NCBI RefSeq assembly: GCF_947252345.1
Contig: NZ_CAMXVC010000001.1
Location: 39,544 to 103,543 of the forward strand
Direction of reading: 5' to 3'
Source of the DNA: an uncultured Finegoldia sp.
Lineage (GTDB): Bacteria > Bacillota > Clostridia > Tissierellales > Peptoniphilaceae
DNA length: 64,000 nt
Below are positions 4,338 through 62,628 of the stretch, piece after piece (the first letter of the stretch is position 1; every line of letters begins with the position of its first letter). The translations under genes and the position numbers were made by a program. Below the pieces are notes generated by a model. That model ran no database searches. It was given only the letters and a program-made list of their open reading frames with translations, and was not told the origin of the DNA.

Positions 4338-5519
4338 TTAGTTCAAATAGTCGAGCGCAAATTGTACGCATATTGCAACAGCTTTGTACAATTCTCCTTC
4401 GTCTATGTCAAATTTTGCATTGTGGTTTGGATAAGTTTTGCCATTTTTATCCATTTTCAAATTGCTCAACATAAAATACGCACCTGGAACTTTTTCGAGA
4501 TAATACGACATATCATCCGCCGCCATAGTTTCCGATTCAATGTTGTATATTATATTCTCAGAAAAAATCTTTCTCGTGGATTTTTTGAGCGATTCCACAA
4601 CTGTTTCGTCGTTCGCAAGATGAGGATACTTCCATGCGTAGTCGTAGTTCACTTTGCACCTGTTCGCTATGGAATAATGTTCTGCAATGTCTCCTATCCT
4701 TTTTCTGATGTATTTTCTGATGTCATCATTGAAAGTTCGAACTGTTCCCTCTATTTCTGCTGTGGATGGTATTATATTTTGATTAATTCCAGAATTGACT
4801 TTGCACACAGAAATTACGCACCTTTCCGATGAGCTGATTTCTCTCGATTTTATCCTGTTGATTGCCTGAACAATGTCGACTAAGCAAACAATTGGGTCAA
4901 TGGTACCTTCCGGCATCGAGCCGTGGCCACCGCTTCCCTCGATTTTTATGACAAATTTGTCCATCGAAGCCATTAGGTTTCCACTTTTAAACCCAACGCT
5001 TCCGTGGGGAACTATAGGAAATAATCCTCCAACGTGGTGACCGATAATGCAGTCCACTTTAGGATTTTCCAACGCGCCTTCTTTTATCATAAGCTCCGCT
5101 CCGCCAGGGTATTCCTCTCCCGGTTGAAAAATAAACTTCACGACTCCCGAAAATTTATCTTTCATAGAGTTCAACACCAACAACGTCGTCAAACAATTCG
5201 CCATATGACAGTCGTGTCCGCAAGCGTGCATATATCCATTTTGTGATTTGAAATCCAAATCAGTGTCCTCTTTTATTTCTAGTGCATCCATATCCGCTCT
5301 TATCGCTAGACATTTTCCGGGCTTTCCCGAATCCACTGTCGCTATGATACCTCTCGAGCCCAAAACTTTTTTGTGGGCAATTTTGTTTTCAACCAACACT
5401 TTTTCTATTTCTTCGCAAGTTTTGTAAGTGTCCAATCCAATTTCTGGTAACTGATGAAGAATCCTTCTTTCTTTAATCAAAAATCCTTCATACTCTTTAA
5501 TCTTTTCTATAATATTCAT
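4338..5519 (-). CDS. M20D-family amidohydrolase (N-acyl-L-amino acid amidohydrolase / hippurate hydrolase-like)
   Basis: Motifs MHACGHDCH, IGHHVGG and GSGGHGSMP are typical of peptidase M20D. Confidence 0.8.
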   Translation of the reverse strand: MNIIEKIKEYEGFLIKERRILHQLPEIGLDTYKTCEEIEKVLVENKIAHKKVLGSRGIIATVDSGKPGKCLAIRADMDALEIKEDTDLDFKSQNGYMHACGHDCHMANCLTTLLVLNSMKDKFSGVVKFIFQPGEEYPGGAELMIKEGALENPKVDCIIGHHVGGLFPIVPHGSVGFKSGNLMASMDKFVIKIEGSGGHGSMPEGTIDPIVCLVDIVQAINRIKSREISSSERCVISVCKVNSGINQNIIPSTAEIEGTVRTFNDDIRKYIRKRIGDIAEHYSIANRCKVNYDYAWKYPHLANDETVVESLKKSTRKIFSENIIYNIESETMAADDMSYYLEKVPGAYFMLSNLKMDKNGKTYPNHNAKFDIDEGELYKAVAICVQFALDYLN

Positions 5520-5520
5520 C

Positions 5521-6642
5521 CTAATCTCTCATTAAATATTTTAGTAGCACCTCTGCTGCTGTTTTCATTTCGTCAACTTCCAAATATTCTTCGGTAGTGT
5601 GAACTTTTTGCATTCCAACTCCTATTATTATCGCATTAAAACCTTGTTCAGCGTAGAAGTTTGCATCTGAGCCACCACCGATTATTTGAAGTTCGCTTTC
5701 TACTCCAATTTCTGAATAACATTTTTGGAATTTCTTTGCCAATTTGAGCTCGTCCAAAGACCTCAACAACGGATACGCTTGAATGTGATTGAAATCATAA
5801 GTCGCTTTGTATCTGTCGCACACTTGTTTGCAAATATTGTCGTACGAACTCAAAACACTTTCTATCTTTTCGTAAGAGTGAGACCTCAACTCTCCCGTGC
5901 AAGTTGTCTTGTCGGGAACAACATTTGACGGAAAATCAGAATTGATGTATGAAATATTCGCAGTTGTCAGCTCGTCTATTCTCAAAATATCCATCTTGGA
6001 TATTATTTCAGAAATAACTTTGATGGAGCTTATTCCTTTTTCAGGTTCAATTCCAGCGTGAGCTTTTTTCCCGTGAACAGTTATTTCAAAAGTGTTGCAA
6101 GCAGGAGCTTGGTATGCGATGTATTTTGATTTGCCAGCATTATCCAATACTATTGTATCTTTTGCAGGATTAATATGCTTGTACACCTCATCCCAGTTCA
6201 CATTTCTCGCTCCGAGCATTCCGGCTTCTTCTCCCGGAGTTATCATACAGTAAATATCTTCGTGGTCTATGTTGTTTTTCACTAAATATTCCAACGCGTA
6301 CAATATAACTGCAACTCCAGCCTTGTCATCGCCTCCCAATGTCGTAGTCCCGTCAGTTTTGATAATATTTCCGTCCTCAATTATTTTGACGCCCTTGTTT
6401 GGTTCTACTACGTCGATATGCGCAGAAAGTGTTATCGCTGAGGGTTTGTTTCCCTTTAAAACGGAGAAAATCGTCGGACAATTGCCGCCGTATTTATCTT
6501 GAGATTCGTCGAGATAAATTTCGCAGCCCAAATTTTTTAAGTAATTGACAACATAATCGCACACATCTTTTTCCTTTTTCGATGGAGAGTAAATATTGAC
6601 CAATTCCTTAAATATATTTTTTAGTTTTTCTAAATCTACCAT
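5521..6642 (-). CDS. M20/M42-family metallopeptidase (peptidase T-like)
   Basis: HIDVVEP, GGDDKAGVA and GGGSDA motifs. AGGAG RBS. Tight operon with the 4338..5519 gene. Confidence 0.7.
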   Translation of the reverse strand: MVDLEKLKNIFKELVNIYSPSKKEKDVCDYVVNYLKNLGCEIYLDESQDKYGGNCPTIFSVLKGNKPSAITLSAHIDVVEPNKGVKIIEDGNIIKTDGTTTLGGDDKAGVAVILYALEYLVKNNIDHEDIYCMITPGEEAGMLGARNVNWDEVYKHINPAKDTIVLDNAGKSKYIAYQAPACNTFEITVHGKKAHAGIEPEKGISSIKVISEIISKMDILRIDELTTANISYINSDFPSNVVPDKTTCTGELRSHSYEKIESVLSSYDNICKQVCDRYKATYDFNHIQAYPLLRSLDELKLAKKFQKCYSEIGVESELQIIGGGSDANFYAEQGFNAIIIGVGMQKVHTTEEYLEVDEMKTAAEVLLKYLMRD

Positions 6643-35036: not shown

Positions 35037-35199
35037 ATTTTCTCCTTCATAAAAAACAATCAAACAACAAAATTCTGCCGATTGATTGCTCAAAATAATT
35101 TTCCTAACCTTATGATTATATACCAATTTTGTGATATTTCAAACACTTATTGTAAAAATTTTTCCATTTGCGATATAATAACTTAAAGGAGAGATACAA

Positions 35200-35721
35200 A
35201 TGAGAAAACTTTTAATAGTTGTAGATTTTCAAAATGATTTCGTTGACGGAGCTTTGGGCTTCGACGGAGCAAACAAACTTGAAGACAAAATCTGTGACAG
35301 AATCAAAAAAGCAAGAGAAGACAACGAAGAAATAATCTTCACATTTGACACACACCAAGACAATTACTTGAACACACAAGAAGGCAAATTTCTTCCAGTC
35401 AAACACTGCATCAAAGGAACAGACGGACACAAACTATACGGAAAAATAGCACAATTAGTCGAAGAAAAAGACATACTAATCGAAAAGCCAACATTCGGCA
35501 GCATCGAACTTTGCGATTACTTACGAGAAAATAAATTTTCACAGATAGAATTGTGCGGACTCGTATCCAACATCTGCGTGCTTTCCAACGCAGTCCTCGC
35601 CAAAACATTCAACCCAGAAGCAACAGTCACAGTCGACAAGAACTTAACTGACAGCTTCGATAAAAAACTAAACCAAGAAACATTAGACATACTCAAAGGA
35701 ATACAAGTAGTCGTAAAATAA
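35200..35721 (+). CDS. isochorismatase-family cysteine hydrolase (nicotinamidase-like)
   Basis: LIVVDFQNDF N-terminus and CGLVSNICV catalytic-Cys region. Confidence 0.75.
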   Translation: MRKLLIVVDFQNDFVDGALGFDGANKLEDKICDRIKKAREDNEEIIFTFDTHQDNYLNTQEGKFLPVKHCIKGTDGHKLYGKIAQLVEEKDILIEKPTFGSIELCDYLRENKFSQIELCGLVSNICVLSNAVLAKTFNPEATVTVDKNLTDSFDKKLNQETLDILKGIQVVVK

Positions 35722-35723
35722 TG
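35681..35723 (+). repeat. copy A of a duplicated gene 3' end (encodes LDILKGIQVVVK-stop)
   Basis: About 85% identical to 36400..36443. Confidence 0.7.
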
Positions 35724-35772
35724 TATTAGAAAACATATATTTTTATCAAAATTTTTCACAAAGGAAATAATT

Positions 35773-36399
35773 ATGCACGACATTTACATTATTTTAGGAT
35801 TATTTTTAGCTTTTTGTGTGATTGCCAAGCTCTTGCTACCACGTCTAAAGGGAGCTATGGGTGAATCAGCTGTAAAAATCAAACTAAATAGTCTTGATAA
35901 AGAAAAATACAGAATTATAAACAACCTTGTTTTAGAAAACAAAAAAGGTAATACAAAAACTACACAAATTGATCACCTAGTAGTTTCAAGATATGGTATA
36001 TTTTCAGTCGAAACCAAAAATTATAAAGGTTGGATTTATGGATCAGAACACGCAAAAAAGTGGACGCAAAATATTTATGGAAATAAAACAAACTTCATGA
36101 ATCCTATTTTGCAAAACTACGCCCACATTAAAGCAGTTGAATCCATTATAAAAGATTCTTATCCTTATATGAGATATTTTTCAATAGTAGCTTTTTCACC
36201 AGAAGCTGAAATCAAATTTGAAGTAAAAAATTCTGTAGTTTGCAAAATATCAAAAGTAGCTAAAAATATTGAAGAACTTTCATCAACAGAAATAATAAAC
36301 GAAACAGATATTGATAATATATTGAAGTTAATCGAAGAAAACAAACTAAATATTAGTAATAGAGAGCATGTCAAAAATTTAAAAGAAATAAAAAAATAA
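35773..36399 (+). CDS. NERD (nuclease-related domain) protein with an N-terminal TM helix
   Basis: Core TQIDHLVVSRYGIFSVETKNYKGWIYG is typical of NERD domains. Confidence 0.65.
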   Translation: MHDIYIILGLFLAFCVIAKLLLPRLKGAMGESAVKIKLNSLDKEKYRIINNLVLENKKGNTKTTQIDHLVVSRYGIFSVETKNYKGWIYGSEHAKKWTQNIYGNKTNFMNPILQNYAHIKAVESIIKDSYPYMRYFSIVAFSPEAEIKFEVKNSVVCKISKVAKNIEELSSTEIINETDIDNILKLIEENKLNISNREHVKNLKEIKK

Positions 36400-36443
36400 C
36401 ATTCGACATACTTAAAGGAGTACAAGTCGTAGTAAAGTAAAAT
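36400..36443 (+). repeat. copy B of the duplicated gene 3' end (encodes FDILKGVQVVVK-stop), followed by a terminator
   Basis: The differences from copy A are mostly synonymous. Terminator AGCAGCCATGAGCTGCT with a T run follows at 36445..36470. Confidence 0.7.
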
Positions 36444-36476
36444 AGCAGCCATGAGCTGCTATTTTTGTTTTCTATT

Positions 36477-36929
36477 TTATATTGTCAGTATCATACAATA
36501 ACCTATATTGGCATTTTTATCATACAAATATAATTTTTTTGTTCCATCTTTTTCAATATACTTATAAAGTATATGCTTTGAATTTTTTAATTTCTCAATA
36601 TCTGCTTTTAATTCTTGTATTTGATTGTTTTTTTCTTGTTCAGATAGCATCATAGTCTCAAAATTGTTATCAAAAATCTGATCGAGTTCGTCATTCTTTT
36701 GCTTAAAATCTTTGAGATTATCCTGACTCTTCAATGAAAAAGAATAGATGTCAAGCCTATCATTTCCGAAACCTCTATCGCTTTCAAATCTTACTTTATA
36801 AGTTTTAATTGATGTGTTAATTTCTGATAAATCACTAATATTCTTATTTGATTTTGCAACATATACTATAGATAACACTACAGAAATAAAAGCAAGCATT
36901 ATCATTAAAATTATTTTTCTTGTTTTCAT
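36477..36929 (-). CDS. hypothetical protein with an N-terminal membrane anchor
   Basis: Single TM near the N-terminus. Third gene of a small minus-strand operon. Confidence 0.35.
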   Translation of the reverse strand: MKTRKIILMIMLAFISVVLSIVYVAKSNKNISDLSEINTSIKTYKVRFESDRGFGNDRLDIYSFSLKSQDNLKDFKQKNDELDQIFDNNFETMMLSEQEKNNQIQELKADIEKLKNSKHILYKYIEKDGTKKLYLYDKNANIGYCMILTI

Positions 36930-36964
36930 AGTAGATTTTAATTATATACTTAACTGCTAATTGT

Positions 36965-37294
36965 CTATTTTATATTGTCATCTGAATAACCGATTGATAT
37001 GTTTTCATTGAGGACGTATTCTTTGGCTGCTTTGTAGTCTTTGTTTTTGTTGAATTCCAACAGCTTATTTTCGTGTTGTTTGGTTACGTCTTTGCCATTT
37101 TGAGTCAATACCAAATGTTTTTCGTCCTTGGCAAACTTTTCTAATGTAGCTTTAATTAAAGTATCGTCTTCTTTTTCAGGATTTTCCTTAACGTATCTTT
37201 CAATTATTCTATGAGTGTCAGCATCGTCAGCCTTTGTCATATTCGTTAGAAAATACGCATTGCACACAAGTGATATAGCAAAAAGTATTGCCAC
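36965..37294 (-). CDS. small secreted or anchored hypothetical protein. The annotated GTG start may be wrong: a 1-nt shift in an A4 run would allow an upstream ATG (37320) with a good RBS.
   Basis: In-frame N-terminus ...KKLTIVAILFAISLVCNA resembles a signal peptide. ATG at 37320 is out of frame by 1 nt. Confidence 0.35.
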   Translation of the reverse strand: MAILFAISLVCNAYFLTNMTKADDADTHRIIERYVKENPEKEDDTLIKATLEKFAKDEKHLVLTQNGKDVTKQHENKLLEFNKNKDYKAAKEYVLNENISIGYSDDNIK

Positions 37295-37803: not shown

Positions 37804-37921
37804 AGTCTCCTCCATTTTTGCTTTTATTAATTATACCACAAATATCGTCAATTTATTCACTATTTGACGTTTTGTAGCAATTGGAAAAAATCCACCAGAT
37901 TTTTCAACCTAGTGGACTGTT

Positions 37922-58929: not shown

Positions 58930-59735
58930 AGCTCTAATACCTCCATAATCCTTTCTAAATCATCATTCGATAGATATTCTATTTCTATCTTTCCACCTTT
59001 TCTCATCGGCTTGATTTTGACCTTTGTTGAGAATTTTTCTACAAATCTATTTTGTAAATCCATCAAAAATGGGTCTTCGCTTTTCGAAACTTTTTCGATT
59101 TCTCTGACGTTGGTTTTCTTTGTCAACAGTTTGTTGAGAAGACTTCTTCTCTTTTTCGTGTCGTCAATCGCAAGCAAACTCCTCGCCTGAGAAGATGTAA
59201 TCTCTTTGTTTTTGAGATGTTCTAGCGATGTGTCGTCCAGGTTTAACAATCTCAATGTGTTTGCCACATACGACCTTGACTTCGATAATTTGTCCGCCAA
59301 CTCCTTCTGAGTTAACTCATAGCTCTCCATCAAACTCTTGTAAGCTTCGGCTTCTTCGACTGCGTTCAAATCCTCACGTTGAATGTTCTCAATGAGTGAG
59401 ACTTCCCTGACTTCTTTGTCCTCCATATCCTTGACAATTACGGGAATGTCGGTCAAACCAGCTTGCGTACTCGCCAAAAATCTTCTCTCACCGGCGATTA
59501 TCTCGTATTTGTCGCCCTTTTTCCTGACAATAATCGGCGAAATAACCCCGTATTCCTTGATTGAGTTCGCTAGTTCATTAATCTTGTCTTTTTCAAAATA
59601 AGTTCTCGGTTGGTCTTTTCTCCTGATTATTTTGGATAGTTCGATTTTGACAATCGAATCTGAACTTGTCGTATCTATAATATTTTGTGGAATAAGGGCA
59701 TCAAGCCCTCTGCCCAATCCTTTTTTCTTAACCAT
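58926..59735 (-). CDS. parB: chromosome partitioning protein ParB (Spo0J)
   Basis: GLGRGLDAL N-terminus. GERRFLAS. Overlaps parA. Confidence 0.85.
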   Translation of the reverse strand: MVKKKGLGRGLDALIPQNIIDTTSSDSIVKIELSKIIRRKDQPRTYFEKDKINELANSIKEYGVISPIIVRKKGDKYEIIAGERRFLASTQAGLTDIPVIVKDMEDKEVREVSLIENIQREDLNAVEEAEAYKSLMESYELTQKELADKLSKSRSYVANTLRLLNLDDTSLEHLKNKEITSSQARSLLAIDDTKKRRSLLNKLLTKKTNVREIEKVSKSEDPFLMDLQNRFVEKFSTKVKIKPMRKGGKIEIEYLSNDDLERIMEVLEL

Positions 59736-60499
59736 TATACAAATTCCTCCGCTAATCTCTTGTAAGCAATGGCTCCTTTGGAGTTTTTGTCGTAACGAAT
59801 GACGCTCATTCCATAGCTTGGGGCTTCTGCTAATCTAATATTGCGAGGTATCATCGTCGTAAACACCTTGTCTTTGAAGTATTTTTTAACTTCTTCAACC
59901 ACTTCCAAGCTTAGATTGTTCCTACCATCAAACATACTCATCAAGATGCCTTCTATTTCAAGGTTTTCGTTAAGCGAACTTCTCACCAAGTTGATAGTGT
60001 TCATAAGCTGGCTGACCCCTTCAAGTGCGTAAAACTCACATTGGATAGGGATTAAAACCGAATCCGCCGCCACTAGAGCGTTTATGGACAACGTGCCCAA
60101 TGATGGAGGACAATCTACAAAGCAGTAATCATATCCTTTTACATTAGAAAGTATATCCTTCAACACCTTTTCCTTGTTATTTGAATTTATAAGCTCGACC
60201 TCAACGCCTGACAAATCCGATGTCGCTGGGATTATATCGACATTTTCTTCATCCGTGTTCAATATAAAATCCTCGTCAAATTCATCGTGAACCATCAAAT
60301 CGTAGACGCTTTTTGACAATTCAAACTTGTTAACTCCAAATCCAGAAGTCGTGTTTCCCTGTGGGTCCAAGTCAACAACGAGTATTTTTTTGCCTTTCAA
60401 GCCAAGAGCTGCTGACAAATTAACAACAGTAGTCGTTTTTCCAACTCCACCTTTTTGATTAAATACACATATTGTTTTCAAATTTACAGCTCCTTCCAT
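59735..60499 (-). CDS. parA: chromosome partitioning ATPase ParA (Soj)
   Basis: Deviant Walker A KGGVGKTT. Confidence 0.85.
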   Translation of the reverse strand: MEGAVNLKTICVFNQKGGVGKTTTVVNLSAALGLKGKKILVVDLDPQGNTTSGFGVNKFELSKSVYDLMVHDEFDEDFILNTDEENVDIIPATSDLSGVEVELINSNNKEKVLKDILSNVKGYDYCFVDCPPSLGTLSINALVAADSVLIPIQCEFYALEGVSQLMNTINLVRSSLNENLEIEGILMSMFDGRNNLSLEVVEEVKKYFKDKVFTTMIPRNIRLAEAPSYGMSVIRYDKNSKGAIAYKRLAEEFV

Positions 60500-60523: not shown

Positions 60524-61756
60524 CTAAAATGTTTCACGTGAAACATTTTTCAAAATCATAAGGCGAAGCTCGCTGATTGCTCTGTTAGAAACCCTGTTTC
60601 TTATTTTATTTCTCTCTCCGTAAAGCTGTAATTTTAGCGTTTTTATTTCGTTTTTGTATCCTAAACCGATGTAGACAAGACCGGCATTTTCTCCTGAAGC
60701 GTAGCCCGTGGTAGATATCGCGCAATCCACTTGGAATTTGTCGAACATTCTCTGAACCATTTCCGCTGCAACATTTTCGCTCACGACGCCGCAAGTGTCT
60801 ATCGTCTGTTTTTTTACTCCCAGCAAGTCAATCTTTGCCTCATTTGAGTAGACAACCAAAGACCTTTTCAAGTAATCGCTTATACCAGCAACGTTAACGA
60901 GCTTGCTTGCAATCATTCCTCCAGTTATGGACTCGGAAGTCATTATAGTCAAGTCGTTTTCCTTTAAAACTTTGTACAGTGACTGTTCAATCGTTTCGTC
61001 GTTTTCACCAAATACATACACGCCAAGCCTTTCTCGTAGTGTTTTCTTCTTTTCATCTATCATACGAATTGCTGTTTGTTTATCCACTGCCTTCGCTGTA
61101 ATCTTCAATATTCTCTTGTTCTTCTTGAAATAAGGGGCGACCGTAGGATTTGTTGACGATTGGATAATGTCCTTGACCCTTTCATTCATATCCCACTCAC
61201 CCAAGATTGAAATGTTCAACGTCTCCGATAAAATGCAGTCACTCGCGTATTTTTTCAAAACATCTTCAACCTGATTTTCGTATAAAGCCTTCATCTCGCT
61301 TGGTGGACCCGGCATAAAAAGTATCATTTTGCCGTTGTTTTCTATCAACGCACAATCCGATGTGCCATTTCTGTTTTCAAATACAATCGCATCTTCGGGA
61401 AACATACACTGGCTGATGTTTGTTTCAATCGCATTTTCATCCTCGTTGAAGTATTTGCGGAGACGAAGGTAGCTTTCCTCGTTAATCACCATTTCCTTGC
61501 CCAGACAATCACAGCAGCATTTCTTGGTGATATCGTCCTCCGTTGGTCCGAGACCTCCTGTGGTTATAATGAGGTCATTGTTTTGCAAAGCCTCTGTTAT
61601 TTCTCTGTGCAATCTTTCGTAATTATCTCCGACCACCACTCTTTTATACAAATCGAATCCGAGCTCTTTCATTTTGATGGAAAGGTAGTTGGAATTGGTG
61701 TCCAAAGTGTCTCCCAAGAGTAATTCCGTCCCTACGGCTATTATTTGAACTTTCAT
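60524..61756 (-). CDS. cinA: competence/damage-inducible protein CinA
   Basis: 410 aa. MocF/CinA N-domain (IIAVGTELLLG) plus C-terminal CinA domain. Confidence 0.8.
   Translation of the reverse strand: MKVQIIAVGTELLLGDTLDTNSNYLSIKMKELGFDLYKRVVVGDNYERLHREITEALQNNDLIITTGGLGPTEDDITKKCCCDCLGKEMVINEESYLRLRKYFNEDENAIETNISQCMFPEDAIVFENRNGTSDCALIENNGKMILFMPGPPSEMKALYENQVEDVLKKYASDCILSETLNISILGEWDMNERVKDIIQSSTNPTVAPYFKKNKRILKITAKAVDKQTAIRMIDEKKKTLRERLGVYVFGENDETIEQSLYKVLKENDLTIMTSESITGGMIASKLVNVAGISDYLKRSLVVYSNEAKIDLLGVKKQTIDTCGVVSENVAAEMVQRMFDKFQVDCAISTTGYASGENAGLVYIGLGYKNEIKTLKLQLYGERNKIRNRVSNRAISELRLMILKNVSRETF
60530..60545. promoter_or_regulatory. parS site (perfect consensus TGTTTCACGTGAAACA)
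   Basis: Exact 16-bp palindrome, embedded in a 24-bp perfect palindrome, between parA and cinA. Confidence 0.8.
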
Positions 61757-61865
61757 ATTTCCTCCATATCATAATACCTTTTTTTGATTTTACCCCTCTT
61801 AAATCGCCTCTCAGAGAGTTGTTTTTTCTCAATTAAATTATATCACTTAATTCGTCCGAGAAAAA

Positions 61866-61881
61866 AGTTTCACGTGAAACA
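61866..61881. promoter_or_regulatory. parS site (AGTTTCACGTGAAACA, 15/16 match)
   Basis: Between cinA and rsmG. Confidence 0.7.
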
Positions 61882-61892
61882 TTTTATAAAAG

Positions 61893-61935: not shown

Positions 61936-62628
61936 TCAAAGAGGATTCTTTTTTGGTTTGCCAGCTCCTCTTGGATATTTTTTTGGAGTTTCTTTTATTT
62001 TTTTAATCACGACTAGACTTCTGTCTTCGCCGTCAATCTTGTAATCAATTGTCTTTTCGATTTTTCCTCCGAGAATTTTGATGGCGTTAGTTCCCACATC
62101 TGTTTCGTCGGATTTGCCCTTCATAGCAATCATATATCCTCCGACTTTTACAAATGGAAGACAATACTCGGACAATGTGTCGAGTTTCGAAACTGCACGG
62201 GAAATACAGTAGTCGTAAGCCTCCCTGTACTGTTTTGTTCTCGTGCATTCCTCTGCCCTTTCGTGAACGGCGTTGATATTAGTGAGTTTCAGTTCATTTA
62301 TTACATCTTTTAAGAAATCAACTCTTTTTCTCAGGCTGTCGAGCAACGTGAAGTCCAAATCGTTCCTCGCTATTTTTAATGGTATCGCTGGAAATCCGGC
62401 ACCCGTTCCTACGTCGATAATTGTTTTGTTTTTTTCAAATTCAAACAGATTTAAAACGTACAACGAATCGACAAAATGTTTCACGTGAAACATTTCTTCA
62501 TCGGTTATGGCGGTCAAGTTCATCACCTTGTTTTTTTCGAGAACTAAGCTCATATAAGTGTTGAGTTGTTGTATTTGATTGTCGTCAAGTTCGATGTCGT
62601 ATTTCAAAAGCGTTTCTTTTAGTGGCAT
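61936..62628 (-). CDS. rsmG: 16S rRNA (guanine527-N7)-methyltransferase RsmG
   Basis: GidB-like length. SAM-binding DVGTGAGFP. Confidence 0.85.
62477..62492. promoter_or_regulatory. parS site (perfect consensus) inside the rsmG coding sequence
   Basis: TGTTTCACGTGAAACA flanked by AAA/TTT. Confidence 0.75.

Follow-up and report, generated by a model that had tools for sequence, protein, structure and literature searches.

How does a single gene come to lie between another gene and that gene's own terminator, bracketed by two unequal copies of its neighbor's 3' end, and which of the two copies belongs to the resident gene? This question is raised by a locus in a 64-kb stretch of DNA from an uncultured Finegoldia sp. 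(64,000 nucleotides of contig NZ_CAMXVC010000001.1, as a whole referred to as the window), in which an isochorismatase-family gene is followed by a gene for a NERD-domain protein, and the final codons of the former recur behind the latter. An earlier note on this DNA suggested that an integrase-mediated element had entered the gene and supplied a replacement 3' end. The window represents a Finegoldia lineage separate from F. magna, its flanking genes being 82-91% nucleotide-identical to those of F. magna. It was compared with other Finegoldia loci in which the gene end is visible, 28 including the window: 7 from species-representative genomes (L002-L008), 14 from metagenomes (L082-L093, L095, L109), and 6 from the window's own lineage (L001, L168, L169, L179, L180, L181), the latter retrieved via exact or near-exact protein look-ups. 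The comparison identifies the NERD gene as a genuine insertion at the 3' end of the isochorismatase-family gene. This insertion probably belongs to a recombinase-free type with long target duplication, placed in a hot-spot slot and spread by homologous recombination, and the window would be a mosaic of two lineages.

An insertion between a gene and its terminator

The locus comprises the following features, all on the plus strand:

35150..35179, plus strand: promoter-like site TTGTAA-18-TATAAT (10/12, consensus scan only), upstream of the isochorismatase-family gene
35200..35721, plus strand: intact isochorismatase-family (cysteine hydrolase) gene, 173 aa (Pfam PF00857, 1.1e-21)
35680..35721, plus strand: repeat copy 1, the gene's own 13 terminal codons and stop, resident-lineage type by allele comparison
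35722..35772, plus strand: leader of the inserted cassette with ribosome-binding site AAAGGA (left-junction alignment of 10 carriers)
35773..36399, plus strand: NERD-domain gene, 208 aa (Pfam PF08378, 2.6e-32)
36399..36440, plus strand: repeat copy 2, the duplicated gene end, now non-coding and by allele comparison F. magna-type
36439..36465, plus strand: intrinsic terminator, shared with the convergent downstream genes (11-bp stem, -22.7 kcal/mol, z -4.7)

The isochorismatase-family gene ends in ...T L D I L K G I Q V V V K stop, and these terminal 42 nt are found again at 36399-36440. The two copies are identical at 36/42 positions without a gap and stay in the old frame, with TAA at the end of each; in the isochorismatase frame, four of the six differences are synonymous and two are conservative (L/F, I/V). 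The first base of copy 2 doubles as the final base of the NERD stop. Within the window, the repeat has no further occurrence, with 0 chance matches expected, and a pair with at least 36/42 identical positions occurred in 0/200 Markov simulations, each of a 4-kb region. The duplicated gene end described in the earlier note is thus real, in frame and with its stop codon included, and only the right end given there, 36443, has to be corrected, as it lies 3 nt past the stop and already within the terminator stem. A longer version of the repeat, 61 nt with 77% identity, was dismissed as chance similarity of A-rich sequence.

Orthologs of the isochorismatase-family gene are present in all Finegoldia loci, and uninterrupted versions of the locus, which the earlier note had proposed to look for, exist in ten of them that lack NERD (L004-6, L082, L085, L086, L090, L092, L109, L181). 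Here, a single gene end is directly followed by the terminator; the empty-site sequence is a nearly perfect match to window copy 2 plus terminator, and all ten loci align across the junction. The terminator directly 3' of copy 2 is identical to the one directly 3' of the gene in the empty sites L004-L006, which bears out the earlier proposal that it is the original one. Another ten loci carry the NERD gene (window, L001, L007, L087-89, L091, L093, L095, L180). Each complete carrier has two gene-end copies, 714-720 nt apart, and relatives with NERD and an unduplicated gene end, which would have spoken against an insertion, did not turn up among them. The insert measures 0.68-0.72 kb, i.e., the 51-nt leader and the NERD open reading frame (ORF), and NERD is its sole gene. 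The repeat is 42 nt long, and 50 nt in L089 and L091, an F. magna subtype in which it reaches the left arm of the terminator. In the F. magna carriers, both copies are 0-2 nt away from the empty-site sequence.

No terminator was detected between the isochorismatase stop and the NERD start. NERD is probably transcribed by read-through from the isochorismatase promoter, for which the promoter-like site at 35150..35179 is the likely source, and transcription would end at the original terminator. The first ~9 nt of the leader are hypervariable among the 10 aligned carriers: the 6-9 nt after the copy 1 stop (window 35722-35730; L007, L087-L095, L180, L170) differ in nearly every carrier (CAGGCT, TAGGCT, CGAGCT, TGTGCT, TGTACT, TGTATT, TAGACT), and the 40 nt behind them hardly vary. 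One subtype has a dif/Xer-like motif in its leader, which was dropped from consideration, as it is not conserved in the other subtype.

Two lineages in one locus and a copy on a plasmid

The divergence between the two copies is strikingly uneven among carriers, as is apparent from the number of mismatches between copy 1 and copy 2:

Window: 6 of 42
Same-lineage carrier L180: 3 of 42
F. magna carriers (7): 0-3 of 42
pFMC plasmid: 0 in the shared 35 nt, stop codon excepted

In the nine other complete carriers, the copies are thus only 0-3 positions apart, each matching the lineage of its own genome. The divergence of about 15% is therefore no trait of the element but specific to the strain represented by the window. 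Compared with the single gene end of L168 and L179, two loci of its own lineage without NERD, the window's copy 1 is changed at 1/42 positions; compared with the F. magna end, it is changed at 5/42. Copy 2 shows the reverse and is 1/42 positions away from the single F. magna end, as opposed to 5/42 for the resident type. Since copy 1 is of resident type and copy 2 of foreign type, the gene keeps its own end. The idea of a replacement 3' end supplied by the element hence has the direction reversed: it is the proximal copy, the one in the gene itself, that carries the resident allele, and the distal copy that is F. magna-type. The accompanying observation that synonymous and conservative differences reflect two coding histories stands, and these histories correspond to ordinary ortholog divergence between two lineages.

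Informative positions within the cassette point the same way. At 35725-6, 35824-6 and 36225, the window shares lineage-specific states with L180, and at 36420, 36437 and through the terminator it is F. magna-type. The simplest reading is that the window strain is a recombinant of two Finegoldia lineages, in which the resident non-magna lineage would have contributed the isochorismatase gene with copy 1 and the cassette's left part, and an F. magna-type source copy 2 and the terminator. The junction would be located in the interval from 36225 to 36420, with homology coming from the highly similar NERD gene, and the copies would differ at 6/42 positions because the strain is a mosaic. Across lineages, the NERD cassette is 95-98% identical, as opposed to 82-88% for the flanking DHH and isochorismatase genes; the cassette must therefore have crossed between lineages after their divergence, i.e., moved horizontally. 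L181, with resident-type flanks and an F. magna-like gene end, represents another inter-lineage crossover within the gene's 3' end, and a longer isochorismatase-like tract in L093, which reaches the NERD 3' end, is read as conversion between the copies. A single F. magna import of 1.5 kb, extending from NERD through a 109-aa gene downstream, was ruled out: the NERD-less, same-lineage L169 is equally F. magna-like there, and the 150-aa gene of the window is closest to that of L169.

Outside the chromosome, the unit was found on pFMC (L171), the megaplasmid of F. magna ATCC 29328, and on a second, near-identical plasmid. Here, 35 nt of copy 1 are followed by the leader, NERD and a 42-nt copy 2, with 93-95% identity to the units in the chromosome; an isochorismatase gene is missing from the entire plasmid. 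This shows that the repeats travel with the NERD gene. The plasmid unit splits a repeat-protein ORF mid-repeat, and this ORF now runs through copy 1 in another frame, so that the plasmid copy must be secondary. As an element of the insertion sequence (IS) family IS3 adjoins copy 2, the original right flank has been lost; the end of this element was inferred from its inverted repeat, and pFMC has only one IS3 copy. The plasmid encodes a conjugation module, which contains a 61-67% identical NERD paralog, and is typed as mobilizable by MOB-suite; it also encodes a tyrosine recombinase and many IS/TnpB genes. It offers a possible vehicle of spread. Between 9156 and 45400, pFMC contains a same-strand array of small hypothetical genes with regular spacings of ~110-170 nt, interspersed with ssb, a JAB-domain gene, a zincin-like peptidase gene and DpnD/PcfM genes, which resembles a plasmid leading region rich in anti-defense genes. 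Three states of the NERD unit have thus been caught, namely chromosomal units in two lineages, a recombinant mosaic and a megaplasmid unit with its two repeats, which makes excision, circle formation and re-insertion directly testable.

A slot with several cargos and the origin of the repeats

Different cargos occupy the same slot in other genomes. In L002 and L083, a SHOCT-domain gene on the opposite strand lies between ~55-nt duplications, which comprise the gene's last 18 nt and the whole terminator; in L003 and L084, a 5'-truncated toxin-like ORF, a 112-aa ORF and a terminator of their own lie between 27-34-nt duplications. The repeats of these two cargos and of NERD overlap in 18 nt (CAAGTNGTNGTAAAGTAA) and differ in their outer boundaries (27-34, 42-50 and ~55 nt), and the right-hand repeats of the unrelated cargos in L002 and L003 have the same start, CAAGT. 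Within the window's own lineage, the slot holds an ApaLI-type restriction-modification system in L168 and a restriction-modification-like set (helix-turn-helix protein, methyltransferase, 365-aa protein) in L179; in both loci, a giant adhesin gene comes next. In L008, a more distant Finegoldia sp., yet another gene is in the NERD position. From these comparisons, the slot is a gene-exchange hot spot in Finegoldia. An integrase or other recombinase gene was found neither in nor beside the slot in the 28 loci. The earlier note had proposed to look for larger islands at the site in other strains. The inserts of L168 and L179 are larger, and a recombinase is absent from the 6-7 kb that are visible of them.

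By its structure, the NERD unit is an insertion with long target duplication, a type that has been catalogued, among restriction-modification and nuclease genes, since 2000, with no mechanism demonstrated (Nobusato et al., 2000, as cited in Furuta, Abe & Kobayashi, 2010; PMC2853133). The class comprises small inserts without mobility genes, flanked by direct repeats of 30-500 bp that are single at the empty site; an example from H. influenzae has 46-bp repeats, which overlap 15 bp of the 3' end of HI0105 (PMC2853133). Every structural feature of this class recurs here: the insert is absent from 10 related loci that align on both sides, its repeats of 42-50 nt exceed 30 bp and match the single empty-site sequence, there are no mobility genes in or beside it, and it is smaller than 20 kb. 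Overlap with a gene's 3' end, variable repeat lengths and cargo of nuclease or defense type are shared as well. Missing are the homologs of restriction (R) and modification (M) genes by which the class was collected, NERD being the sole cargo gene. As single-gene cases, namely the HNH nuclease gene mcrA and orphan M genes, were included by the same authors (PMC2853133), the demand for R + M is to be regarded as a screening choice. The NERD unit differs from the catalogued cases by its cargo, which is not of the restriction-modification type, by its movement to a plasmid and across lineages, by the lineage-specific mosaicism of its repeats and by its host, a Gram-positive anaerobe. It is an unusually compact case, with one gene, a 42-nt repeat and clean empty sites, and it is common in a human commensal.

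Two other kinds of mobile DNA are similar in part. Staphylococcal cassette chromosome mec (SCCmec) at rlmH/orfX, as well as the integrative and conjugative element ICESt1 at fda with its integrase-less relatives, the cis-mobilizable elements (CIMEs), are integrated into gene 3' ends by recombinases; their repeats are fixed attachment (att) cores, and a dedicated recombinase is present in related elements. Repeats with a gene's last codons, a frame that is kept, varied cargo at one site and integrase-less forms are common to these elements and the NERD slot. However, in the slot neither the element nor its relatives at the site have a recombinase, boundaries vary, and there is no gene end borne by the element, as the proximal copy is the host's own and the distal one foreign. 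The other kind comprises minimal mobile elements (MMEs) of Neisseria and core-genome hot spots of recombination between conserved genes. They share with the slot the alternative cassettes of one or a few genes between the same conserved flanks, free assortment and spread by homologous recombination. MMEs are not defined by a duplicated target, whereas each of the three Finegoldia cargos lies between duplicates of a gene end or terminator.

According to the explanation we favor, the cassette would have come to lie between the isochorismatase stop and the gene's terminator, bracketed by the 42-nt gene-end duplication, with no recombinase involved and with one repeat copy marking the empty site. 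It would then spread by homologous recombination, with homology provided by the repeats and by the cassette itself, and the cassette with both repeats would have been copied onto the megaplasmid pFMC. To the right of a point between 36225 and 36420, copy 2 and the terminator would be of F. magna type. The anatomy of the locus, its polymorphism, the lineage to which each copy belongs, the plasmid unit and the fold of the protein are shown; the parts of this account that we infer are the rise of the first duplication, the transfer routes, expression and function. Some hints concern the first of these. In one NERD subtype, copy 1 runs on via TAAAATAGCAG into the left arm of the terminator; the other subtype has 5 nt fewer at this position, with a hypervariable hexamer. 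The original duplication may therefore have included the terminator, which may later have been crippled such that transcription enters NERD. A rearrangement in L169 is informative as well. On a 225-kb contig shared with L168, the whole variable region is tandemly duplicated (4765-6354), and at the joint, which includes copies of the 109-aa and a 144-aa gene, the isochorismatase gene is joined, at nt ~60, to ~70 nt from the 3' end of mnmA. The fusion point is an 8-nt microhomology, CTTCG(C/A)CG, and the two copies are 9-12% diverged and carry different cargo, so the duplication looks like a merodiploid built from foreign DNA. Together, the repeat ends of the three cargos, the terminator arm in copy 1 and this microhomology fit better with illegitimate joining, combined with single-crossover or unequal recombination, than with a fixed att site.

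Several points weigh against this explanation. In both lineages, cassette-type sequence starts exactly at the stop codon, which is sharper than simple homologous recombination predicts and is also compatible with a site-specific crossover, and the CAAGT start common to two unrelated cargos hints at a preferred break point. The call of a crossover in the window relies on few informative sites and on one same-lineage comparator, L180; alternatively, the window retains an original F. magna-type copy 2, and copy 2 of L180 was converted by its copy 1. Finally, defense libraries match NERD at the domain level only (PglW, MADS6).

Sharp junctions are what a site-specific or hairpin-directed enzyme acting in trans would produce, if it cut at, or close to, the stop codon and terminator stem and generated a long target duplication with each insertion. 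Such an enzyme could be a recombinase of plasmid, phage or host origin, or a terminator-targeting transposase; in PMC2853133, an IS30-type element is cited as duplicating inverted repeats that resemble terminators, and the tyrosine recombinase and the IS/TnpB genes of pFMC might be considered, too. The repeats match the local allele in each genome, as a fresh target duplication would, and the junctions of unrelated cargos cluster at the terminator's left arm and at CAAGT. On the other hand, no such enzyme is linked to the unit, the boundaries are inconstant, and the mixed copies of the window require recombination anyway. Moreover, the plasmid copy retains its isochorismatase-derived repeats and has no duplicated plasmid sequence, and therefore at least that move was no fresh target duplication. 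We regard a trans-acting enzyme as a possible but rather unlikely origin. The earlier suggestion of an integrase island, an att-flanked element with copy 1 as supplied end and copy 2 as displaced original, of which the integrase has been lost, would explain the direct repeats of a gene 3' end around the insert, the single copy at the empty site and the occurrence of several cargos at one site with repeats overlapping in 18 nt. It predicts the opposite of the observed distribution of resident and foreign alleles, though; an integrase or a larger integrase island occurs at 0/28 loci, the lengths and boundaries of the repeats vary with the cargo, and the plasmid unit has both repeats where the target gene is absent. 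This makes an island remnant very improbable, and the case teaches, for annotation, that a diverged duplicated gene end need not mean an integrase element.

It might also be asked whether insertion is the wrong direction altogether, i.e., whether NERD and its repeats are ancestral in Finegoldia and the empty sites result from repeated precise deletions, with no horizontal spread. Precise loss is possible via direct repeats of 42-50 nt, and the carriers are scattered among F. magna strains in all combinations with the neighboring variable genes. Deletion may indeed account for some of the empty sites. As a general explanation it is improbable, given a cassette that is much more similar across lineages than its flanks and a different gene in the position in the more distant L008. 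According to a further idea, the repeats would be no passive scars but the portable homology arms of a recombinase-free 'homing cassette'. A unit on the transferable (MOB-typed) megaplasmid, or a circle or multimer formed by recombination between the repeats, would insert via host recombination beside the isochorismatase gene of any Finegoldia, regenerating the duplicated end and leaving copies that are donor/recipient mosaics. The nuclease cargo might even aid insertion by breaking DNA, as has been proposed for restriction-modification genes. We give this idea only a small chance, and continue to favor an insertion with long target duplication that spreads by ordinary homologous recombination.

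The NERD protein and further features of the region

The cargo was described in the earlier note as a single NERD nuclease-like gene with a membrane anchor, and this description has proved accurate. The match to Pfam PF08378 (2.6e-32) scores 112 bits against a cut-off of 22.1 and spans the whole profile (positions 1-111 of 111). The AlphaFold model, with a predicted local distance difference test (pLDDT) score of 89.9, has an N-terminal helix over residues 2-38, of which 4-22 are hydrophobic, and a compact alpha/beta core. D67, E80 and K82, which form a PD-(D/E)xK core, are invariant in 43 aligned sequences, and the Foldseek matches, with Bax1 as the best fold match and Can2, Hjc, McrC and the R2 endonuclease in addition, are all PD-(D/E)xK nucleases. 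On the evidence of the model, NERD is a membrane-anchored protein with a PD-(D/E)xK nuclease fold. A sequence search against solved structures gave no match, and an exact-protein look-up returned nothing on record. Most NERD relatives have 250-300 aa with a C-terminal Top1-type zinc ribbon, which the 208-aa form of the window lacks.

The same domain with its PD-(D/E)xK signature occurs in the archaeal endonuclease Bax1, in the N-terminal domains of PglW of the bacteriophage exclusion (BREX) type 2 system and of MADS6, and in ZwsA, a phage-defense protein with a NERD domain as its RNA-cleaving effector (bioRxiv 10.64898/2026.04.06.716636). In contrast to these proteins, the one in the window is a stand-alone 208-aa domain with an N-terminal membrane helix, and the architecture of ZwsA differs; in the literature, no functionally tested member of this stand-alone, membrane-helix architecture was found. 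PADLOC and NCBIfam gave no match to a defense system, only sub-threshold matches at the domain level (PglW, 29-31 bits with a cut-off of 990; MADS6, 31 with a cut-off of 460), and the phage collection contains only distant homologs with <41% identity. The surroundings of NERD are defense-related, with restriction-modification systems in the same slot (L168, L179) and a YoeB/RelB module nearby in relatives. The alternation with restriction-modification systems supports a defense-type role, which is plausible, and NERD would most likely act against foreign nucleic acid. As a stand-alone, membrane-anchored protein whose gene takes turns with such systems, it is a candidate defense factor.

Downstream of the terminator, further genes vary among strains:

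36477..37294, minus strand: genes for two small membrane/secreted proteins (150 aa, 109 aa), outside the NERD unit (locus presence/absence)

The 109-aa and 150-aa genes, together with a 212-aa gene that is present in L169 and L086 and missing from the window, form a family of tandem paralogs with strain-variable copy number (window 36477-37294; L169 6390-7891; L086 2340-2990). Similarity to the 109-aa protein has an E value of 0.044 for the 150-aa and of 3e-16 for the 212-aa protein, and a 20-nt repeat at 36468-36487 and 36961-36980 corresponds to the shared 3' ends of the small membrane/secreted-protein genes. The possibility that the indels of the 150-aa and 212-aa genes are foreign cassettes with target duplications was accordingly rejected. 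A YoeB/RelB pair, or the antitoxin alone, is variably present between the 144-aa gene and mnmA (L002 8748-9343; empty in the window at 37885), with no long flanking repeat at this indel. The 150-aa gene, the 212-aa gene and the YoeB/RelB module assort in all combinations among the loci, and their variation does not represent further cases of the NERD-type insertion process.

Elsewhere in the window, a palindrome, TGTTTCACGTGAAACA, is present three times (60526-60555, 61862-61891 and 62473-62502), adjoining a ParA/Soj-like gene (59735-60499), an rsmG-like gene and an mnmG-like gene. Judged by the consensus, these palindromes look like parS sites, and the window would then lie close to the origin of replication. 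The terminator-like hairpin AAGCCACATTGYGTGGCTTTTTTTGTGTG has two copies, at 20716-20744 and 21734-21762, 1018 nt apart and with 97% identity. Between the two, right behind a 436-aa gene, lie a DUF6290-type and a HicB-type antitoxin-like ORF, so that the arrangement may be a second insertion with a duplicated terminator; it is present in three same-lineage contigs, among which no empty site was found. Finally, at 22971-23234 and 24909-25583, the gene for a 1196-aa surface protein contains ~20 tandem units of 12 nt, which encode a Ser/Thr-rich tract, and a domain repeat of 300 nt with 97% identity.

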